From the NCBI RefSeq assembly GCF_000092105.1, contig NC_014148.1, forward strand, positions 4,470,001 through 4,502,000: a stretch of DNA of 32,000 nucleotides. Direction: 5' to 3'. Source of the DNA: Planctopirus limnophila DSM 3776. GTDB taxonomy: Bacteria > Planctomycetota > Planctomycetia > Planctomycetales > Planctomycetaceae. The translations under genes and the position numbers were made by a program. Below, piece after piece: positions 5,472-31,966 of this stretch. How positions within the stretch are numbered: the first letter of the stretch is position 1; each line of letters opens with the position of its first letter. Below the pieces are notes generated by a model. The model had not been told where the DNA came from. It saw only the letters and a program-made list of their open reading frames with translations, and ran no database searches.

Positions 5472-5621
5472 ATACGGATTCCAATATTCAACGGCGCTCC
5501 TTGGTATGGGGTGGCTGGGGTTGAGTCTTCGAACCCCCAGCGATTTTCGGAACGAACTGGGGGTTCGCGAAGACGCTCAACCCCAGCCACCCGCCCCGCA
5601 GTTGTTGATTGGAATCCGTAT
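5472..5621. repeat. 150-nt near-perfect palindrome (long imperfect hairpin/cruciform) in a divergent intergenic region
   Basis: Arms 5472-5540 and 5557-5621. Paired blocks: ATACGGATTCCAAT (14 bp), GGGTGGCTGGGGTTGAG (17 bp), TCTTCG (6 bp), AACCCCCAG (9 bp). Apical loop is 5541-5556. The right arm has two CG bulges. Confidence 0.85.
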
Positions 5622-6373: not shown

Positions 6374-7303
6374 ATGCCTGCCCTGCTGGCTCGGGAAGAA
6401 TATATCGAGCAGGCTTACTTCTTTCGGACGTTCCGCGAGCGGCTGAAAGAGGATTTGCCCACACAGGAGATTCTCCAGGCGCTGCAGGACGAACTGCTCG
6501 CTTCGACCAGGCTGCCCATGGCGGTCAATCATCTGCGAACCGAGTTATTGCACAGTGGTGTGATCTTCACCGGGATGAGGCAACTGGGCCATTATTTTAC
6601 GTCCTTCCAGGCGTTTGTGATGGAGCAGGCCGAGCAGGAAGGGAGTCGGTTTGATCATTGGCTGGCACTCGAAATTCTCGAACGTGAAGCCGACTATAAA
6701 TCGAAAGAGTCGCTGGCTTCGGGATTGTTTGTGTTTCAGTTTGAATCGTTGGCACGCAATCGGCTGGGGTATGATCGCGGCCTCGATGCGATCGCTGGTG
6801 ATCCGATTTATAACGAAGCATGGAAGATCTGGATCAAGCGTTTAAGAGCGCTCCTGGGAACTGTCGATTTCGCGGACCTGCTGTATCATCGGTCGGAACT
6901 GGCAGCTAAGAATCGCGAGAAACAAGCGGCCCAGAAGGCCTCGATCCAACAGCTTTCGCAGCCTGAGGAAAGTGGGAATGAGGCTGCCGAGGTGAATTCG
7001 ACGACCAGTCGGGCACCTCAAGGAGAAGAAATTCTCTTCAGCGATGCGGCTGGGCGAATTGCCAAAGCGAATCATGGCAAGGATCCGCTCTATCTGTTCG
7101 CGGCACTGCAAAGGCAACTGGGATATCCGGCAGTTCCCAGGCCGCAACGTGCTCTCAAGTTGGCCCAGACACATCCTGAGTTGGAGATGCGGCTTTCGCG
7201 GCTGGAACAGCGGTTGCATCTGATGGAAGCGGAGCAAGCGGGGAAACTGGATCTCAAGGAATTTCTCATGAAGCCACCCTCCTTTGGAGACGATCTCGCT
7301 TAG
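6374..7303 (+). CDS. Hypothetical protein (309 aa)
   Basis: Long ATG ORF with composition like its neighbours. No motif recognised. Confidence 0.7.
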   Translation: MPALLAREEYIEQAYFFRTFRERLKEDLPTQEILQALQDELLASTRLPMAVNHLRTELLHSGVIFTGMRQLGHYFTSFQAFVMEQAEQEGSRFDHWLALEILEREADYKSKESLASGLFVFQFESLARNRLGYDRGLDAIAGDPIYNEAWKIWIKRLRALLGTVDFADLLYHRSELAAKNREKQAAQKASIQQLSQPEESGNEAAEVNSTTSRAPQGEEILFSDAAGRIAKANHGKDPLYLFAALQRQLGYPAVPRPQRALKLAQTHPELEMRLSRLEQRLHLMEAEQAGKLDLKEFLMKPPSFGDDLA

Positions 7304-7360
7304 GATTTGCACGTAGAGTCCATCAGTCCTGACAGGATGAAGCCAAGACATTGTGGGAGG

Positions 7361-7655
7361 CATGCTTGCTCAGAGCCGCTGTCTTTTTCACATAACGTCA
7401 CCCAAGGGTGGCACGACCCTGGAGCCCCAAAAATCCAAACAGTGCGAAAGGGCGTGGTCTTCGTGCCCTTCAACGTTACATTTAATGTAACACTGCATAG
7501 GAGGGAGTCGGATGTCTTCATCCGCCCCCAGTAACAATGCGTTGCCAGCACGAATGCATCCGCGATATGTTTTCCTGACTTGAGAGCATGTTTGTCATTA
7601 ACAATCAGAGTCCAATGACCTGGGGGTCGGACAAGGACGTTTGATTCCAGCCTCC
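7361..7655 (-). repeat. Modular intergenic repeat, copy A (inverted relative to copies B and C)
   Basis: The reverse complement aligns by hand to 27425-27611 and 30925-31216. Shared blocks: GGGGGCGGATGAAGACAT, ACCACGCCCTT, CTGTTTGGATTTTTGGGGCTCCAGGGTCGTGCCAC, CAAGCATG, TCAAACGTCCT, ATTGGACTCT. Confidence 0.85.
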
Positions 7656-7708
7656 GAGTCGTGGGAGGCATGCTTGCTTGGTATTAACTTAAGACAGAGC
7701 CGCAAGCA

Positions 7709-7756
7709 TGGCACTGAAAGAGCTTGGCACTGAGCAGGCATGGCACTGATCACGGG
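7709..7756 (+). repeat. Three tandem 16-nt units each starting TGGCACTGA, 29 nt upstream of the ribD ATG
   Basis: Units: tggcactgaaagagct / tggcactgagcaggca / tggcactgatcacggg, starting at 7709, 7725 and 7741. Confidence 0.8.
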
Positions 7757-15433: not shown

Positions 15434-15457
15434 GGGTGACCGTTCCGTCCCCCGTAG

Positions 15458-15474
15458 GGTCCGCTGTGCGGACC
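15458..15474 (+). terminator. GC-rich hairpin GGTCCGC-TGT-GCGGACC, 25 nt after the lepA stop (no U-tract)
   Basis: Perfect 7-bp stem. Its position is consistent with a 3'-end structure. Confidence 0.35.
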
Positions 15475-15506
15475 ATATTGGGCTTATCGCCGGAACGAGA
15501 GATGAA

Positions 15507-15550
15507 AGTTAGTAGTTAGTAGTTAGTAGTTAGTAGTTAGTAGTTAGTAG
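15507..15550. repeat. Heptanucleotide microsatellite (AGTTAGT) x6.3
   Basis: Six perfect tandem copies counted by hand, followed by the hairpin GGCAGG-CTCCCG-CCTGCC (15551-15568). Confidence 0.95.
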
Positions 15551-15690
15551 GGCAGGCTCCCGCCTGCCGTCCTTCCAGCAGATAACTCAGCCACTCCCAG
15601 TTGCATGGCATGAATCGCCCAGTTCCCATAGCCTGCGAGATTGACCCATGGATCGGTGGTGAATTCCTGCGACCGGCTGCGGCCACCACC

Positions 15691-15718
15691 ACAATGAGTC
15701 CTGACCCCTTTGTCTCTG
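15691..15718 (+). repeat. Left copy of a 28-nt imperfect direct repeat (ACAATGAGTCCTGACCCCTTTGTCTCTG)
   Basis: Matches 16476-16503 (ACAATCAGTCCTGACCCATTTGTTTCTG) at 25 of 28 positions. The pair brackets the AT-rich segment. Confidence 0.75.
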
Positions 15719-15820
15719 CCTAAGTATCAAAGCGCTATTCACATTCGCAAGACAATAAAGGATCCCGCCTTCCCACGAATAACATGCGCCCACGATACCA
15801 TCTTGCCGCTAGGCAGTGCT

Positions 15821-16102
15821 TCACAATCTATCATCAGGAGGCCCAAATCTGCCAACAACTAAGATGGAAATATAGAGAATAACTATATATATAACCGTAT
15901 AAATAGAACCCTGAACCAAGAAATGAAGACTAGCAATCAATCCAGATCTACCCAACATGACTACCACAAATGAGGGTAAGATCGTCGCAACGAATAACCA
16001 AAAAAGAAGCCATAAGTTGATGAGCGTTAACAAGACTGACGCAACAGCCCCTCCAGCAGACATCAGTGAGTCAAATAGCGACATATCAGCCTCCCCCGTC
16101 AT
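15821..16102 (-). CDS. Small hydrophobic membrane protein (87-93 aa, ~3 TM), unknown family
   Basis: ATG at 16102, or ATG at 16084 with GGGGGAGG 6 nt upstream. Hydrophobic stretches LLTLINLWLLFWLFVATILPSFVVVML and IYTVIYIVILYISILVV. GC is much lower than the neighbours. Confidence 0.5.
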   Translation of the reverse strand: MTGEADMSLFDSLMSAGGAVASVLLTLINLWLLFWLFVATILPSFVVVMLGRSGLIASLHFLVQGSIYTVIYIVILYISILVVGRFGPPDDRL

Positions 16103-16486
16103 GATAGTGATGCATCATGGAATACTCGCTTCCATTTGTACGTCAGCTCTATCTATTCACCACTTTTATTCATATAGATAACAATAACTTCTGTCCCCTC
16201 GCAGGGTGGCACAGGTTGCTCGTCCGCGAGCTCCCTGTGTGCCGGAGGCAAAAGAGGCTTCGTTGCCGGAAGAGTCCGGATGCGGATCACTGTTCATGGT
16301 AGATCGTGATCTTTCAGAACTGCAATAGAGCCAGAACCCTCCTGTGGCTTCACCACCCCGGTAGAACTCAGGATATCAACCGGGGCCACCCTGCGAGTGC
16401 ATGATACAACTCACCCGCCTCACAGGCTCCTAGTATTCCTGGTATCGCAGCAGGCTTTCAAACACCCGAAACAAAACAATCAGTCC

Positions 16487-16557
16487 TGACCCATTTGTTT
16501 CTGTGACCCATTTGTTTCTGCGCTGTTTCTCTGTTTCTGCTGACCCCTTTGTTTCTG
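16487..16557 (+). repeat. Array of three 17-mers TGACCC(A/C)TTTGTTTCTG plus CTGTTTCT-rich filler
   Basis: Units at 16487-16503, 16504-16520 and 16541-16557, lying 120-190 nt upstream of the sulfatase ATG. Confidence 0.85.
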
Positions 16558-27398: not shown

Positions 27399-27424
27399 AA
27401 ACCGGGCTGAGTGGCGCACCCGGC

Positions 27425-27611
27425 TGTCATTCAGGCTGATGAACTCGATTGACCAGGGGGCGGATGAAGACATTCAACCCGAAACGCCCTGCTCTTACAT
27501 AGAATTTGAGGTCGAAGGGTGCAAAGACCACGCCCTTTCGCAAAGCCTTCAGGGATGTGCCACGCTTGGGTGAGAGTTCTTTGGAATTGACAGCCCAGAG
27601 CGACAAGCATG
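27425..27611 (+). repeat. Modular intergenic repeat, copy B (short form)
   Basis: Contains GGGGGCGGATGAAGACAT, ACCACGCCCTTTCGCA, a shortened GGGATGTGCCAC block and CAAGCATG. Hand-aligned to copies A and C. Confidence 0.85.
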
Positions 27612-27641
27612 GGACAAAGCGATGATTCCTGGGATGGGTGC

Positions 27642-28877
27642 TTACTTGACCTTCAGCCTGAGCTGCTGAACTTCGCCAGAGCCGTGAGCATGATCATGGC
27701 CCGTGTGATCATGGCCCGTGTGATCGTGGCTGTCGTGATTGCCGTGGGAGTGAGCCGGTTCAAGGAAGCCGATCCCCCAGGCGGCAATGGTGCCTGCGAT
27801 GAGTAGAGATGTCAGTTGCCAGCGATCATGGGAGTGAAACTGCACTTCAGGGAGAAGATCGGCCAGGGCAATGCACAGGAATGAGCCCGCAGAAAACGCC
27901 AGGGCACAACCGACGATCAAAGCCTGCTGGCCTTGAAGCTGTTCCACTCCGAGTACGAACAAGAGGGCACCGGCTGGACACATGAGTGCGTAACCGAAGT
28001 TGACCAGAGTTCGCCACCTGGCGGGGCTGCCAGCGGCCAGCATGAGCGAAGTGATCGAGAGGGAATCGAGAGGTTTATGCAGAGCAATGGCGAGAAAGGT
28101 TCCCAACCCAAAGAGAGAACCTGCCGGAAGATGCAACTGATCCGTTTTGACAGCAGCAGCGAGAGCCATGCCATCGACGAGCGTGTGAATGACCAGGCCG
28201 AATGTCATGGCGACCCAACTGAGATCGTGCGCCGCCGGAGGAACAGGAGCCTGAGTTGCCGAACTGGAGGATGGATCCAGCACTGGAAGTAACGTATCCG
28301 CCACGACGGCTGACGAGACGATCGGCAGGAGGTTTTGGTCAGCGTACTGAGAGTCGGGAGCGTTTGCAGCCGATGTCACGTGAGGATCGTGGCTGTGGGA
28401 GTGAGACTGGCAGTGGGCATGATCATGAGCATGGTCGTGATTGTGCCCATGGTCGTGATTGTGAGAGTGATCATGAGAATGACCATGGTCGTGTGCATGT
28501 CCTGCGTCGTCTTCCCCATGTGAATGCGAGTGGAAGTGGAAAACTCGCAGCATGACGAACATGGCCACCAGGCCAATGACGACCCAGAGCATCGTCAGAT
28601 CAACAGGGTTTTTGACCCCGCCATCGCCCAGAGCATGAATGGCATGGGGCACCTGATGGAACAAAGCCACGCCGACAATGAAACCACCGACAGCACTGAT
28701 GATGCGTTGCAGGCGCTGGTGGGTGATTCGCATCAGCGATGGAAGCCAGCCACCCAGAAGTGAACTGCAGGCGACCAGCACACACCAGATGATGAGGACT
28801 GCAGAAATACCGCTCCCTGCCACGGCCAGAGAGTTTCCCTGCCACCCCAGACTGCTCAAGCCAAACCACAGCGACAT
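27642..28877 (-). CDS. ZIP-family divalent metal (zinc) transporter with two His-rich segments
   Basis: Multi-TM protein with a central loop HSHSHGEDDAGHAHDHGHSHDHSHNHDHGHNHDHAHDHAHCQSHSHSHDPH and a C-tail HSHGNHDSHDHTGHDHTGHDHAHG. ZIP-like TM motifs (HTLVDGMALAAAV, ALHKPLDSLS). Confidence 0.85.
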   Translation of the reverse strand: MSLWFGLSSLGWQGNSLAVAGSGISAVLIIWCVLVACSSLLGGWLPSLMRITHQRLQRIISAVGGFIVGVALFHQVPHAIHALGDGGVKNPVDLTMLWVVIGLVAMFVMLRVFHFHSHSHGEDDAGHAHDHGHSHDHSHNHDHGHNHDHAHDHAHCQSHSHSHDPHVTSAANAPDSQYADQNLLPIVSSAVVADTLLPVLDPSSSSATQAPVPPAAHDLSWVAMTFGLVIHTLVDGMALAAAVKTDQLHLPAGSLFGLGTFLAIALHKPLDSLSITSLMLAAGSPARWRTLVNFGYALMCPAGALLFVLGVEQLQGQQALIVGCALAFSAGSFLCIALADLLPEVQFHSHDRWQLTSLLIAGTIAAWGIGFLEPAHSHGNHDSHDHTGHDHTGHDHAHGSGEVQQLRLKVK

Positions 28878-28886
28878 CAGAACTCT

Positions 28887-28931
28887 CCCCGGCGGATGAA
28901 GGATTCAGCCGACTGCCGATTCATCCGGGGG
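28887..28931 (-). promoter_or_regulatory. Leader hairpin 10-54 nt upstream of the ZIP start codon, partly covering the GGGGAGAG SD-like tract
   Basis: CCCC-GG-CGGATGAA / TTCATCCG-GGGG (8+4 bp) with a 19-nt loop. Contains the 11-mer GGCGGATGAAG, shared with the repeat family. Confidence 0.4.
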
Positions 28932-29052
28932 AAAGTTTCGTCCTCACGTAAAATTTATGCAACTTCACAATGAGTTCTAATGAATGTTTACTGAAAAAAC
29001 CTTGGGCAGCGTCGAACTTCAGCTGCTTGAGGCGGCACGCGAGGCGTTCGCA

Positions 29053-29412
29053 TCAGGCCACAATCCAGGCTTTGGCTTCTTCCAGCTTGGAGATATCAAA
29101 GTACTTGATTGAAGCTCCTGTGAATGGTTTGCAGAAGGCGGCCATTCCTTCTTCCCATTTGCTTTCGCCGACAATGGCGAGCTTTTCGATGTCTTTGCCG
29201 TGCTTGAAATCAAACTTGATGTCTTGCCACAAGGCGCCCATGGTCCAGCCATGGAAGTCGTGCATTTCGAAGAGCAGTCGCAGTTTGCCGTGCTCCGCGA
29301 CCATCTTTTCGACCATTGGAACGAACTGCTCATAGGCGGCGGCATCGAGTTTACCTGTCACGCGTACAATCAGCAGATTGCCAGACCCAACCAGTTCGAC
29401 GGCATTGACCAT
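29053..29412 (-). CDS. STAS/SpoIIAA-like domain protein
   Basis: LLIVRVTGKLDAAAYEQFVPMVEKMVAEHGKLRLLFEMHDFHGWTMGALWQDIKFDFKHGKDIEKLAIVG matches the SpoIIAA-like (STAS_2) family pattern. ATG at 29412 after GGGAAG; GTG at 29418 is also possible. Confidence 0.8.
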   Translation of the reverse strand: MVNAVELVGSGNLLIVRVTGKLDAAAYEQFVPMVEKMVAEHGKLRLLFEMHDFHGWTMGALWQDIKFDFKHGKDIEKLAIVGESKWEEGMAAFCKPFTGASIKYFDISKLEEAKAWIVA

Positions 29413-29641
29413 GATCACTTCCCTTTTCGAAACGACAAATCCAGCTTTGAATTTCTGACACCAGTCTCAAACCGGCGTCAAACGATCTTTATCAGTTCTC
29501 TGCAAAGTACACCACCGAGCCAGAATGTGCACATGAATTCTCCATAAGCTTGTGCCGCGAAGAAGCGACGAAACGTAAATGACAAGTCGCGAGTAAACTG
29601 TGGTTAAACTGTGCTGATTGTTTCACCTGGGAGGGTTGACG

Positions 29642-30922
29642 ATGTCGCGACTGATGACGGGAATGGCTTATGTGATCACGGTCGTGACGATGATCCTGAG
29701 TGGGGGAGATTTCCATCGATTGCAAGGGGCTGAGACGGCTGCCGACATTCTGGCAGAAGCAGGGAAAGAGGCTCGATTTCAAGAAGGTATCGCCCGCCTA
29801 CAGGCCCAATTAGAACAGAAACCCGAAGATGCCGAATTGCGTTTTGCGCTGGGTTTGCTGCAGTTTCTGGGGGCCGTCGATGAGTTTGCAGCCAGCCAAT
29901 ACCACTTTGGGGCGGGTGGAGGAACTGCTCGAAGTTTGAGTTTACCGTTTTTTCGAGGCATCCCTGAAAATCCGCAACCAGCCCCGGTGACCTTTGCTCA
30001 AACGCAGGAGATTTTCTCGAAACTCGGGAAGCAGATCGCGGTGGCTGAAAAGACTTTGGCCGGGCTGGAAACGCAGCGAGTGAAACTTCCTTTCCGTCCG
30101 GGACAGATTTCGCTCGACTTCAATCGAGATGGAAAAGTGGGTGATGACGAATCATTCTGGCAACTCCTTTCAGCAGTCAATCCGGCAATACGAGAGATTC
30201 CTGCCGACAAGTTTCTCCTGCAGATTGATGAAGGGGATGCCGTCTGGTTGCGAGGGTATTGCCACTTCCTGATGGCGATCTGTGATCTTTCAGCTGCCTA
30301 CAACACGAAGGAGATGTTTGAACGTGCTGGCCACATGATTTACGCCAAACCCGTGACGCCCTACCCCTGGAATCAGGAACCAGAACCCAACGAAAATGGC
30401 AGCTTTTCCTTCTCTCGAATTGCTGACCTGATTGCGATGATTCATCTGGTGAATTTTGAAGTGGTCGATGCGAGCCGGATGGCCAGTGCGCATGCTCATC
30501 TGTTGGAGATGGTGCGGTTGAGCCGGATCTGCTGGAAGCTTTATGAGGCTGAAACTGATGATGAAGCCGAGTGGATTCCGAATGATCGTCAGCAGAATGT
30601 CGTCATTGGTTTGAGAGTCTCACGCGAGCAGATCACGGGCTGGCACAAAGCGCTGGATGAGATGGAGGCGATTCTGCTGGGGAAGAAGCTGATTCCGTTT
30701 TGGCGCGGAAGCCTGGTCAATTCGAGTGGAGTGATGGGGCGGGGAGTGAATCTGGCCAAAGTGTTTCAAAAGCCAGAGCGTTTTGACATGGTGCTGTGGA
30801 TATCAGGAACAGGGGCCGCTCCATTTATCGAAGAAGGGCCACTTTCGTCAGAGGCCAGCTGGAACGAATTGCAGCGAGTCTTTGGCGGGCAGTTCTTTGG
30901 TTTTGCGGTATGGTTCAACTGA
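29642..30922 (+). CDS. Hypothetical protein with N-terminal signal anchor (426 aa)
   Basis: ATG at 29642 is preceded by GGGAGGG. Hydrophobic N-terminus MAYVITVVTMILSGG. No family recognised. Confidence 0.7.
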   Translation: MSRLMTGMAYVITVVTMILSGGDFHRLQGAETAADILAEAGKEARFQEGIARLQAQLEQKPEDAELRFALGLLQFLGAVDEFAASQYHFGAGGGTARSLSLPFFRGIPENPQPAPVTFAQTQEIFSKLGKQIAVAEKTLAGLETQRVKLPFRPGQISLDFNRDGKVGDDESFWQLLSAVNPAIREIPADKFLLQIDEGDAVWLRGYCHFLMAICDLSAAYNTKEMFERAGHMIYAKPVTPYPWNQEPEPNENGSFSFSRIADLIAMIHLVNFEVVDASRMASAHAHLLEMVRLSRICWKLYEAETDDEAEWIPNDRQQNVVIGLRVSREQITGWHKALDEMEAILLGKKLIPFWRGSLVNSSGVMGRGVNLAKVFQKPERFDMVLWISGTGAAPFIEEGPLSSEASWNELQRVFGGQFFGFAVWFN

Positions 30923-30924
30923 TC

Positions 30925-31216
30925 TGCGTGGTTGGGGTCAAACGTCCTCGTTGGCCCCCAAGGTTATTGGACTCTCATTGCTGATTGCGAACGTGCTTGA
31001 AAGCCATGAAGGCATGTCACGGCTGCATTCGTGCTGGTGAACTCGATTGACCAGGGGGCGGATGAAGACATCCGACCCCTGCCACCCGGCAGTATGAAAA
31101 CGTGAAGTTGAAAAGCGTAAAGAACCACGCCCTTCCGCACTGTTTTGATTTTTGGGGCTCCAGGGTCGTGCCACACAGTGGCGTGTGAAGAGTAATGACA
31201 ACCGCAAGCATGGCAC
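30925..31216 (+). repeat. Modular intergenic repeat, copy C (long form)
   Basis: Fills nearly the whole convergent intergenic gap. All blocks are shared with copy A, including the extra TCAAACGTCCT...ATTGGACTCT module. Confidence 0.85.
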
Positions 31217-31252
31217 AGAGCATCACACATAGATACCCGGCAGGCGGACGAG

Positions 31253-31966
31253 CTACTTGCTGTGAGTATCATCCGAGAAGAGGCCAAAGCCGGCGATAAG
31301 GCCATCCTTCATAATGATCTGCTGCTTGGCTTTGCGTGCGACGGAGTTTTCGTGCGTCACCATGATGATCGTGCGGCCCTCGGCATTGAGTTCGCCCAGA
31401 AGCTGCATGATTTCCTGCTCGGTTGTCGAATCGAGATTTCCTGTCGGTTCGTCGGCGAGGATGATTTCGGGATCGTTGATGAGTGCGCGAGCAATCGCCA
31501 CACGCTGCTGCTGACCACCCGAAAGCTGGAATGGTCGATGATCAAGACGCTCGGCTAATCCCACACGTCCCGCCAGATCCAGACAACGATTCATATCGGA
31601 CGAACTGATAGTGCGCTGATGGGTGCGGTAGTGCAGAGGCACCTGAATGTTTTCGAGCACCGTGTATTGCGGGATCAGATTGTACGACTGAAAAATAAAG
31701 CCAATCAGCTTGTTACGAATTTCAGAGAGCTGATCGTCATCGAGTTCGCTGACATCGTGACCTGCGAGGATGTAATGTCCATCGGTAGGGCGGTCAAGAG
31801 CCCCCAGCAGGTTGAGCATGGTGCTTTTGCCGCTTCCGGAGGAACCCATGATGGCCACGTAATCGCCTTCGGGAAAATCGACAGAGACACCGCGCAAGGC
31901 CCGCACCAGGTGCTCGCCCAGTTGGTAAGTCTTGTGAATGTCAATTAATCGGGCGGCATACTTCAT
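31253..31966 (-). CDS. ABC transporter ATP-binding protein (MacB/LolD/FtsE-like)
   Basis: Walker A GSSGSGKST, Q-loop, signature LSGGQQQRVAIARAL, Walker B IILADEPTGNLD, H-loop VTHE. Confidence 0.95.
   Translation of the reverse strand: MKYAARLIDIHKTYQLGEHLVRALRGVSVDFPEGDYVAIMGSSGSGKSTMLNLLGALDRPTDGHYILAGHDVSELDDDQLSEIRNKLIGFIFQSYNLIPQYTVLENIQVPLHYRTHQRTISSSDMNRCLDLAGRVGLAERLDHRPFQLSGGQQQRVAIARALINDPEIILADEPTGNLDSTTEQEIMQLLGELNAEGRTIIMVTHENSVARKAKQQIIMKDGLIAGFGLFSDDTHSK

Follow-up and report, generated by a model that had tools for sequence, protein, structure and literature searches.

The window, by which we mean the whole stretch of DNA analysed, comprises 32,000 nucleotides of Planctopirus limnophila DSM 3776 (contig NC_014148.1, positions 4,470,001 to 4,502,000) and carries three copies, A, B and C, of an intergenic repeat. 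Copy A lies beyond the end of the gene at 6374-7303, copy B adjoins the gene of a ZIP metal transporter (ADG69291.1, 100% identity) and copy C that of an ABC ATPase. Copies B and C are on the + strand, which is taken as the reference orientation, and copy A is on the - strand. In a preliminary description of this DNA the three had been regarded as homologous members of a modular, non-coding, intergenic repeat family. This was confirmed with a profile built from 12 copies, which retrieved all three from the window at E-values of the order of 1e-51 to 1e-101 (copy A, 9e-95; copy B, 2.7e-51; copy C, 5.7e-101). The open reading frames (ORFs) that run across A and C are on different strands and have no Pfam matches, and, as had been stated, no transposase gene is adjacent.

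The blocks reported to be shared by the copies were recovered as well. The 18-mer GGGGGCGGATGAAGACAT occurs at exactly three sites in the window, 7512-7529 (-), 27456-27473 (+) and 31054-31071 (+), where none is expected by chance (100 shuffles), and ACCACGCCCTT and CAAGCATG are likewise common to A, B and C. The 36-nt block of A and C sits inside a 51-nt A/C match (96% complementary), and the additional module of these two copies measures 108 nt (76%). Alignment confirmed that copy B has a 14-nt shorter version, and it also lacks the 5' module. The 18-nt direct repeat GTGGGAGGCATGCTTGCT that brackets copy A is exact (7353-7370 and 7661-7678). From the stop codons to CATGCTTG the distances are about 58, 29 and 40 nt, as had been given. 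The rule attached to them, that each copy follows the stop of a co-oriented gene, did not survive: it is automatic for B and C, because both are situated between convergent genes, and it is broken at the related loci L012 and L025 (L numbers denote fetched sequences). Orientation relative to the genes is variable, copy A being antisense to its tandem neighbours and the copies at L012 and L025 co-oriented with theirs. A convergent setting was found at 6-7 of about 14 loci, i.e. B, C and four or five others.

What the preliminary description had overlooked is a set of inverted hairpin units with a common GGGTGGC foot, which places the elements in the class of repetitive extragenic palindromes (REPs), their inverted pairs (REPINs) and bacterial interspersed mosaic elements (BIMEs). 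Clear terminal inverted repeats had been said to be absent. However, copy C has a 32-nt inverted pair (30928-30959 / 31054-31085), each arm of which is itself a 13-bp hairpin. The unit is an imperfect palindrome of ~36 nt with the unpaired foot GGGTGGC, and this foot heads all three unit types, labelled REP1, REP2 and REP3. A full copy consists of REP1 in forward orientation, a ~90-nt spacer, REP2 inverted, REP3 inverted and then a part of M3, a second palindrome family (GGCATGCTTGC..GCAAGCATGCC). The features in the window are the following.

30926..30963, + strand: REP1 of copy C, foot GCGTGGT, hairpin TTGGGGTCAAACG-TCCT-CGTTGGCCCCCAA with 13-nt arms (85% complementary).
30964..31051, + strand: spacer between the two inverted REPs of copy C, moderately conserved across copies in the alignments.
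31052..31087, + strand: REP2 of copy C, inverted, CAGGGGGCGGATG-AAGA-CATCCGACCCCTG with the 3' foot GCCACCC; it includes the invariant 18-mer (13 nt, 92%).
31110..31176, + strand: third unit of copy C, in which CACGCCC pairs with the upstream GAAAAGCG (H3, 31110-31135) or the downstream GGGTCGTG (REP3, 31125-31176); foot-like GCCACAC at its end, long loop variant CTGTTTTGATTTTTGGGG.
31202..31216, + strand: M3 right half of copy C, CCGCAAGCATGGCAC.
27424..27615, + strand: copy B, 5'-truncated and without REP1; half a spacer, then REP2 (27454-27489), H3 (27514-27539), REP3 with the short loop AAGC (27528-27565) and the M3 right half (27589-27615).
7619..7655, - strand: REP1 of copy A, degenerate in P. 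limnophila, GGAGGCTGGAATCAAACGTCCTTGTCCGACCCCCAGG.
7495..7531, - strand: REP2 of copy A, CTGGGGGCGGATG-AAGA-CATCCGACTCCC, foot degraded.
7406..7471, - strand: third unit of copy A, H3 at 7446-7471 and REP3 at 7406-7457, long loop variant; its foot (7406-7412) reads GGGTGGC on the + strand.
7353..7383, - strand: M3 right half of copy A, GACAGCGGCTCTGAGCAAGCATGCC, plus TCCCAC, containing the first 18-nt direct repeat (7353-7370).
7661..7749, no strand assigned: resident M3 hairpin of locus A, containing the second 18-nt repeat (7661-7678), with arms at 7669-7677 and 7702-7710 and a 24-nt loop; behind it, up to 7749, a tandem array of three 16-nt GCAAGCATGGCACTGA-like units.
5509..5592, no strand assigned: compact inverted REP pair (REPIN) of a sister subfamily, made up of GGGTGGCTGGGGTTGAGTCTTCGAACCCCCAGC on the left (5509-5541) and, on the right, a - strand unit (5557-5592).

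In the reference strand REP1 reads GGGTGGC-TGGGGTCAAACG-TCCT-CGTTTGCCCCCA-GG (family consensus GGGTGGCTGGGGTCAAACGTCCTCGTTTGCCCCCAGG). REP2, CAGGGGGCGGATG-AAGA-CATCCGACCCCTG-CCACCC, is a hairpin of the same kind, inverted, with the foot on its 3' side. In the third unit ACCACGCCCTT has two alternative pairings, one upstream (H3) and one downstream (REP3, which ends in GTGCCACCC), and the loop is the long variant or AAGC. The M3 portion is half a palindrome (...GACAGCGGCTCTGAGCAAGCATGCC). M3 is also found by itself as a small hairpin (GGCATGCTTGC-N8-GCAAGCATGGC), at L026:12800-12835 and L025:1900-1935, and at several loci two M3 halves flank the element in inverted orientation. Pairing across the 12 copies amounts to 86.5% of cells for REP1, 85.6% for REP2, 96% for the REP3 stem and 81% for H3. 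A mismatch is conserved at an equivalent stem position of the first two units, T.C in REP1 (11/12 copies) and G.A in REP2 (12/12). When REP1 is set against the reverse complement of REP2, 7/26 stem-loop positions differ, all seven by transitions, and the differences are compensatory within each hairpin, the inner stem being AAAC/GTTT in REP1 and GGAT/ATCC in REP2. Judged from these substitutions, it is the locally folded hairpins, rather than a long REP1:REP2 helix, that appear to be maintained. In the long helix the counts of G.U and A.C pairs (3 versus 4) are uninformative on strand choice.

Such pairing bears on the interpretation preferred previously, namely a family of structured non-coding RNAs or elements of the 3' untranslated region (terminator, mRNA stabiliser or small RNA), in which RNA structure or protein binding to the transcript would be conserved. 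The strand co-oriented with the upstream genes indeed folded better than shuffled sequences (z = -3.4 for A and -2.9 for C) and the other strand less so (-1.6 and -1.1). This is not specific, because a palindromic DNA repeat would fold well too. The conserved blocks with variable spacers between them, the several A.C mismatches of one strand that, on inspection, are G.U on the opposite strand, and the convergent settings mentioned above also agree with a transcribed element. Nevertheless, RNAalifold, although it found conserved helices (a REP1:REP2 helix and the REP3 stem), gave a covariation term of +0.92, which means none, and base-pair changes on both sides are confined to 2-3 pairs. In line with the earlier statement that no known RNA family was recognised, Rfam had no match at gathering score in the window, and at E <= 10 only chance-level matches to copies A and C. 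A promoter and terminator scan of the copies yielded no terminator-like site and one weak promoter-like match; H3 with the T-rich long loop was dropped as a candidate intrinsic terminator. The search for tRNA and tmRNA found none. As copy A is opposite to L012 and L025, orientation with respect to tandem genes is inconsistent, and at a given gene end closely related species differ by the presence, absence or exchange of modules. These results make a structured RNA or 3' element an improbable explanation of the family.

The units could be related to published REPs. Quentin et al. (2018; PMC6006769) list the REP sequences found within 1 kb of genes for TnpA_REP, the REP-associated tyrosine transposases (RAYTs). 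In their Additional file 2, P. limnophilus ADG68431.1 (subclass 2.2) is flanked by the REPs GGGTGGCTGGGGTTGAGTCTTCGAACCCCCAGC and GGGTCGCTGGGGTTGAGCGTCCTCGCGAACCCCC. The authors also remark that part of the subclass 2.2 genes go with a GTGG instead of a GTAG foot. The first of these REPs is identical to window positions 5509-5541, and the head GGGTGGCTGGGGT and the closing CCCCCAG recur in the compact inverted pair at 5509-5592. With the second, REP1 has in common a head of 13 nt, its length, the GTCCTC loop and a closing CCCCC. REP1 and REP2 agree with the RAYT-flanking REPs in head (13 nt), length and closing stem but belong to a different subfamily. Within the window GGGTGGC is present at 12 sites (4.9 expected), six of which head intergenic palindromes.

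Copies A and C contain the inverted REP1/REP2 pair, as do the short forms L026c, L025b, L026b, L008c and L042:316-481, whereas copy B is a long form that has lost REP1 by 5' truncation. The short forms (~190 nt) contain REP1, spacer and REP2 and nothing more, and have the ends GGGTGGC...GCCACCC; at the four examined no target duplication was present. Their size and their inverted ends of ~36 nt would also suit an ordinary cut-and-paste miniature inverted-repeat transposable element (MITE) derived from a DDE-type insertion sequence, with the 36-nt ends as terminal inverted repeats and a parent transposase acting in trans, and the 18-nt direct repeat around copy A, together with the clean absence of this copy in a sister species, points in the same direction. 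Yet the four short forms lack a duplication and 18 nt far exceeds those made by DDE enzymes. Moreover, each presumed terminal repeat forms a hairpin of its own, in which a mismatch is conserved and whose foot is that of the RAYT-flanking REPs. The two ends differ systematically by compensatory changes, where a single DDE transposase would be expected to have near-identical ends, and no larger element with these ends was seen in plasmids, viral contigs or the fetched loci. A DDE-type origin is regarded as improbable. Tn3-like ends, suggested by a GGGGTC motif, were rejected, as the conservation runs 8 nt further out to the foot and 5-bp duplications are lacking.

The distribution of the family was determined by a two-motif pattern search with one genome per species. 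True matches were limited to Planctomyces sp. MAG D1_MAG_00040, a metagenome-assembled genome (D1 MAG; five loci), and P. hydrillae (one locus); the remaining 18 hits were chance matches in unrelated, mostly G+C-rich genomes. A metagenome scan added three contigs, all from one project. The viral contigs gave no match, nor did the plasmid collection (blastn). Eight further full or partial copies emerged from a profile search of the fetched loci, which brings the total to ~20 copies in ~117 kb of DNA of the Planctopirus clade, all of them extragenic. The 22 kb of P. ephydatiae DNA covered appeared to contain few of these units. Short-read (Logan) contigs of P. limnophila DSM 3776 end within the conserved cores of B and C, as is expected of a multi-copy repeat.

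Orthologous sites were compared between species. Over 10 kb the identity between the D1 MAG and the window is ~93%, and the MAG retains all three copies at their sites; its copies are 95-98% identical to those of P. limnophila, other intergenic DNA 96% and genes 88-94%. In the D1 MAG, copy A has a rewritten REP1 that folds as a perfect hairpin, the changes being compensatory (GGTGGCAAACG/CGTTTGCCACC), in contrast to its degenerate counterpart in P. limnophila. Long and short loop variants have been swapped between the two, and a 16-nt loop segment differs. At site A of P. ephydatiae both flanking genes are syntenic and the spacer measures 140 nt instead of 481 nt; the M3 hairpin, one copy of GTGGGAGGCATGCTTGCT and a single 16-nt unit are retained and the element is absent. 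This defines the 308-nt unit bounded by the 18-nt direct repeat as an exact presence/absence unit. The spacer of P. hydrillae, clearly orthologous to that of copy A, contains a short form only. Because gene identities put P. hydrillae outermost and P. ephydatiae nearest to the D1 MAG, the absence in P. ephydatiae is more likely to reflect clean loss than a primitive empty site, though recombination could blur this order. The locus of the ZIP homologue P0002 was dropped as a candidate empty site, being non-syntenic and uninformative. At site B only REP3 and other modules occur in P. hydrillae, and M3 with another GGGTGGC-footed palindrome in P. ephydatiae; at site C neither species has an element, and the neighbouring gene differs. 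Modules are thus turned over at the same gene ends among species whose flanking genes are 92-96% identical.

Synteny breaks coincide with the repeat sites, which suggests that the repeats may mark rearrangement breakpoints. When L042 and L043 were compared with window positions 27400-31260, gene order was seen to change between species exactly at the sites of B and C: the GT downstream of ZIP is replaced in P. ephydatiae, and the ABC ATPase gives way to other genes in both P. ephydatiae and P. hydrillae. Tandem 16-nt units ending in GCATGGCAC(TGA) follow M3 hairpins (7700-7749; L026:12830-12910); at locus A, P. limnophila and the D1 MAG have three of them, P. hydrillae two and P. ephydatiae one. 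A similar array, GGAGCGTATGGCACAC, lies downstream of the M3 hairpin of L026. A further recurrent module (L042:7240-7330, L043:7300-7420, L015:300-440 and L028:4270-4370) is formed by the GGGTGGC-footed hairpin GGGTGG-CCCGGCCA-NNNNN-TGGCCGGG between inverted repeats CACGACAACAA/TTGTCGTG, and a separate palindrome, CCCTCGCCCGCGTCTGCGTGGGAGAGGG, recurs in spacers of P. hydrillae and P. ephydatiae.

REP palindromes are a known class of selfish or semi-domesticated bacterial repeats. The foot-bearing imperfect palindromes with their conserved mismatches, the inverted pairs, the multiple extragenic copies in one lineage, the turnover between species and the identity of foot and outer stem with the RAYT-flanking REPs all argue that the elements are REP-type repeats, arranged as REPINs and extended into BIME-like mosaics, and this we hold to be probable. 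The mosaic character is evident from the alternating REP orientations, the long and short loop variants, the M3 halves and the extra modules in other species.

Several observations fit this assignment less well. The RAYT-flanking REPs that have been published are a sister subfamily and not REP1/REP2 themselves, and CTGGGGTCAAACG, when looked for in the supplement of PMC6006769, gave no match. ADG68431 is ~850 accession numbers away from the window genes ADG69274 to ADG69291. A RAYT gene is absent from the window and from all fetched Planctopirus loci: a regular-expression search for the HuH...Y motif in the ORFs of all fetched DNA matched only the unrelated chance loci L032-L036, G+C-rich metagenome contigs that encode a RAYT/IS200-like HUH-Y1 protein (HYH...YVVLNP) and have no relation to the Planctopirus elements. 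At 190-300 nt the elements exceed classical REPINs in length. Finally, an HUH-Y1 transposition is not expected to leave an 18-nt direct repeat such as that bracketing copy A, for which recombination between M3 arms or slippage would be a plausible source.

The composites of 190-300 nt might also be more than passive REP clusters. They might be a Planctomycete-specific unit that enters and leaves the M3 loop, or the REP1/REP2 pair and the invariant blocks might serve as a binding platform for a host factor. Entry into and exit from the M3 loop would explain both the duplicated 18-nt hairpin arm at locus A and the clean absence in P. ephydatiae; if true, it would imply a hairpin-targeted route of integration and excision that has not been described for REPINs. 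We consider these possibilities unlikely.

A related proposal is that the repeats are protein-binding DNA sites (a nucleoid protein or gyrase being possible ligands, as has been suggested for the BIMEs of Escherichia coli) that have been domesticated by the host for chromosome organisation and are no longer mobile. The invariant blocks GGGGCGGATGAAGACA and ACCACGCCCTT are conserved beyond their pairing partners, which would agree with protein binding, as would the 95-98% identity of orthologous copies in two species, a value similar to that of other intergenic DNA (96%). Copies are, however, lost or remodelled between close relatives. Since domesticated sites are compatible with a REP origin, they would be better seen as an addition to it; as an explanation standing by itself we regard the proposal as improbable.

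Mobilisation by a RAYT is the most likely mechanism for these elements. The biochemistry of the E. coli TnpA_REP was reportedly established by Ton-Hoang and Messing. Elements of this type are usually explained by a RAYT that works on hairpins in single-stranded DNA (PMC3116915, PMC3337134; PMC6006769). REP1 and REP2 face each other across the ~90-nt spacer, the pair alone giving the ~190-nt short form and the pair with REP3, as a third foot-bearing palindrome, and M3 halves giving the long form. The hairpins and foot, exposed on single-stranded DNA, would be recognised by one of the RAYTs (HUH-Y1 enzymes) of the genome, which would cut and rejoin at the foot, so that single units or pairs would multiply, disappear and change their arrangement in the course of the lineage; the mosaic pattern would owe something to recombination among copies as well. 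We infer the catalysis by a RAYT, the particular RAYT that acts and any effect on RNA. An influence on neighbouring genes through 3'-end hairpins that protect or end transcripts would be secondary and independent of orientation; such a role is possible and is not required by the data.

Other palindromes and repeats were encountered in the window. At 15455-15476 a canonical GTAG-footed REP, GTAGGGTCCGCTGTGCGGACC, similar to a P. brasiliensis entry in PMC6006769, is followed by tandemly repeated AGTTAGT heptamers (15507-15555). Several REP families evidently reside in the P. limnophila genome, in agreement with its list of RAYT genes, which includes ADG66203, ADG66729, ADG68356 and ADG68431. The CnGA-footed structures of class 3 TnpA_Y1 genes (PMC6006769), to which ADG69454 of this genome belongs, were rejected, since the hairpins do not match. 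In an intergenic region of ~1 kb, a markedly A+T-rich stretch (15700-16200) has on one side two inverted GGGTGGC-footed palindromes, GGGTGGCACAGG...CCTGTG (16204-16243) and GGGTGGCCCCGGT...ACCGGGG (16352-16391). The short direct repeats ACAATSAGTCCTGACCCMTTTGTYTCTG / TGACCCATTTGTTTCTG occur in one copy at 15691-15718 and in three, partly tandem, copies (16476-16557) upstream of the gene starting at ~16679. Around the compact REP pair at 5509-5592 there is a 25-nt inverted repeat (5472-5496 / 5597-5621; 84% complementary), and both pair and outer repeat seem to be lacking in the orthologous P. ephydatiae spacer (L045:2057-2407). Just upstream of the start of the ZIP gene, the palindrome CCCCGGCGGATGAA...TTCATCCGGGG (28884-28927) shares GGCGGATGAAG with REP2, is otherwise unrelated to it and may have a regulatory function. 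On a metagenome contig that encodes a ZIP protein with 73% identity to that of the window, a 'double-foot' unit, GGGTGGCTGCGGCCGAAC...GTTTGACCCCAACCACTC (L040:186-229), has the appearance of an inverted REP pair of this family that has collapsed, here in an organism more distantly related.

REPs with the GGGTGGC foot type have already been tabulated for this genome. In the literature searched there was no description of the REP1/REP2 subfamily, of the heterotypic pair, of the third unit or of the link with M3 hairpins. If the REP assignment is correct, it explains a candidate new RNA, the 'mosaic conservation' being the signature of REP clusters, and extends REP/REPIN/BIME-style organisation with a non-GTAG foot and heterotypic hairpin pairs to the genus Planctopirus. 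The repeats also coincide with assembly breaks, synteny breaks and differences between species. These findings should be useful for the annotation of Planctomycete genomes and for RAYT-REPIN studies outside the Proteobacteria.

The earlier comparison with the BOX and Correia mosaic repeats proved apt in kind. Like the Correia (NEMIS), ERIC, BOX and RUP elements, the Planctopirus repeats are small, non-coding and intergenic, with inverted ends and modular variants; such elements are often co-transcribed with their neighbours. Those families are either DDE-mobilised or DDE-derived with short target duplications (TA for Correia), or modular without foot-bearing REP hairpins, and no sequence similarity to them was seen; the likeness is one of kind only. 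The BIMEs of E. coli, reportedly characterised by Gilson, Bachellier and Boccard, are comparable: they too are mosaics of REP types in alternating orientation with recurrent linker motifs and copy-specific module content, located after genes and often between convergent ones. They have no sequence relationship to the present elements, in which a second, unrelated palindrome family (M3) provides the outer ends or an insertion site. The palindrome-associated transposable elements (PATEs) derived from IS200/IS605 resemble the Planctopirus repeats in being non-autonomous, in having subterminal hairpins instead of terminal inverted repeats, in lacking a target duplication and in their presumed dependence on an HUH-Y1 enzyme. 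The ends of PATEs, however, match a resident IS200/IS605 with tnpA/tnpB, whereas the present units match REPs beside a single-copy RAYT-type gene (PMC6006769). Compared with the REP/REPIN and RAYT systems of Pseudomonas fluorescens, E. coli and P. limnophilus itself (PMC6006769), the foot differs, GGGTGGC being of the GTGG and not of the GTAG type. The pair is heterotypic with covarying inner stems, its ~190 nt with a ~90-nt spacer exceed the ~100 nt typical of REPINs, and the published table (PMC6006769) has no entry for the REP1/REP2 subfamily. Otherwise the agreement extends to the short imperfect palindromes, the unpaired foot and the stem mismatch, to the spacer-separated inverted pairs in multiple extragenic copies in a single lineage, with short forms without target duplication, and to a foot and outer stem identical to those of REPs on the flanks of a RAYT gene in this genome.

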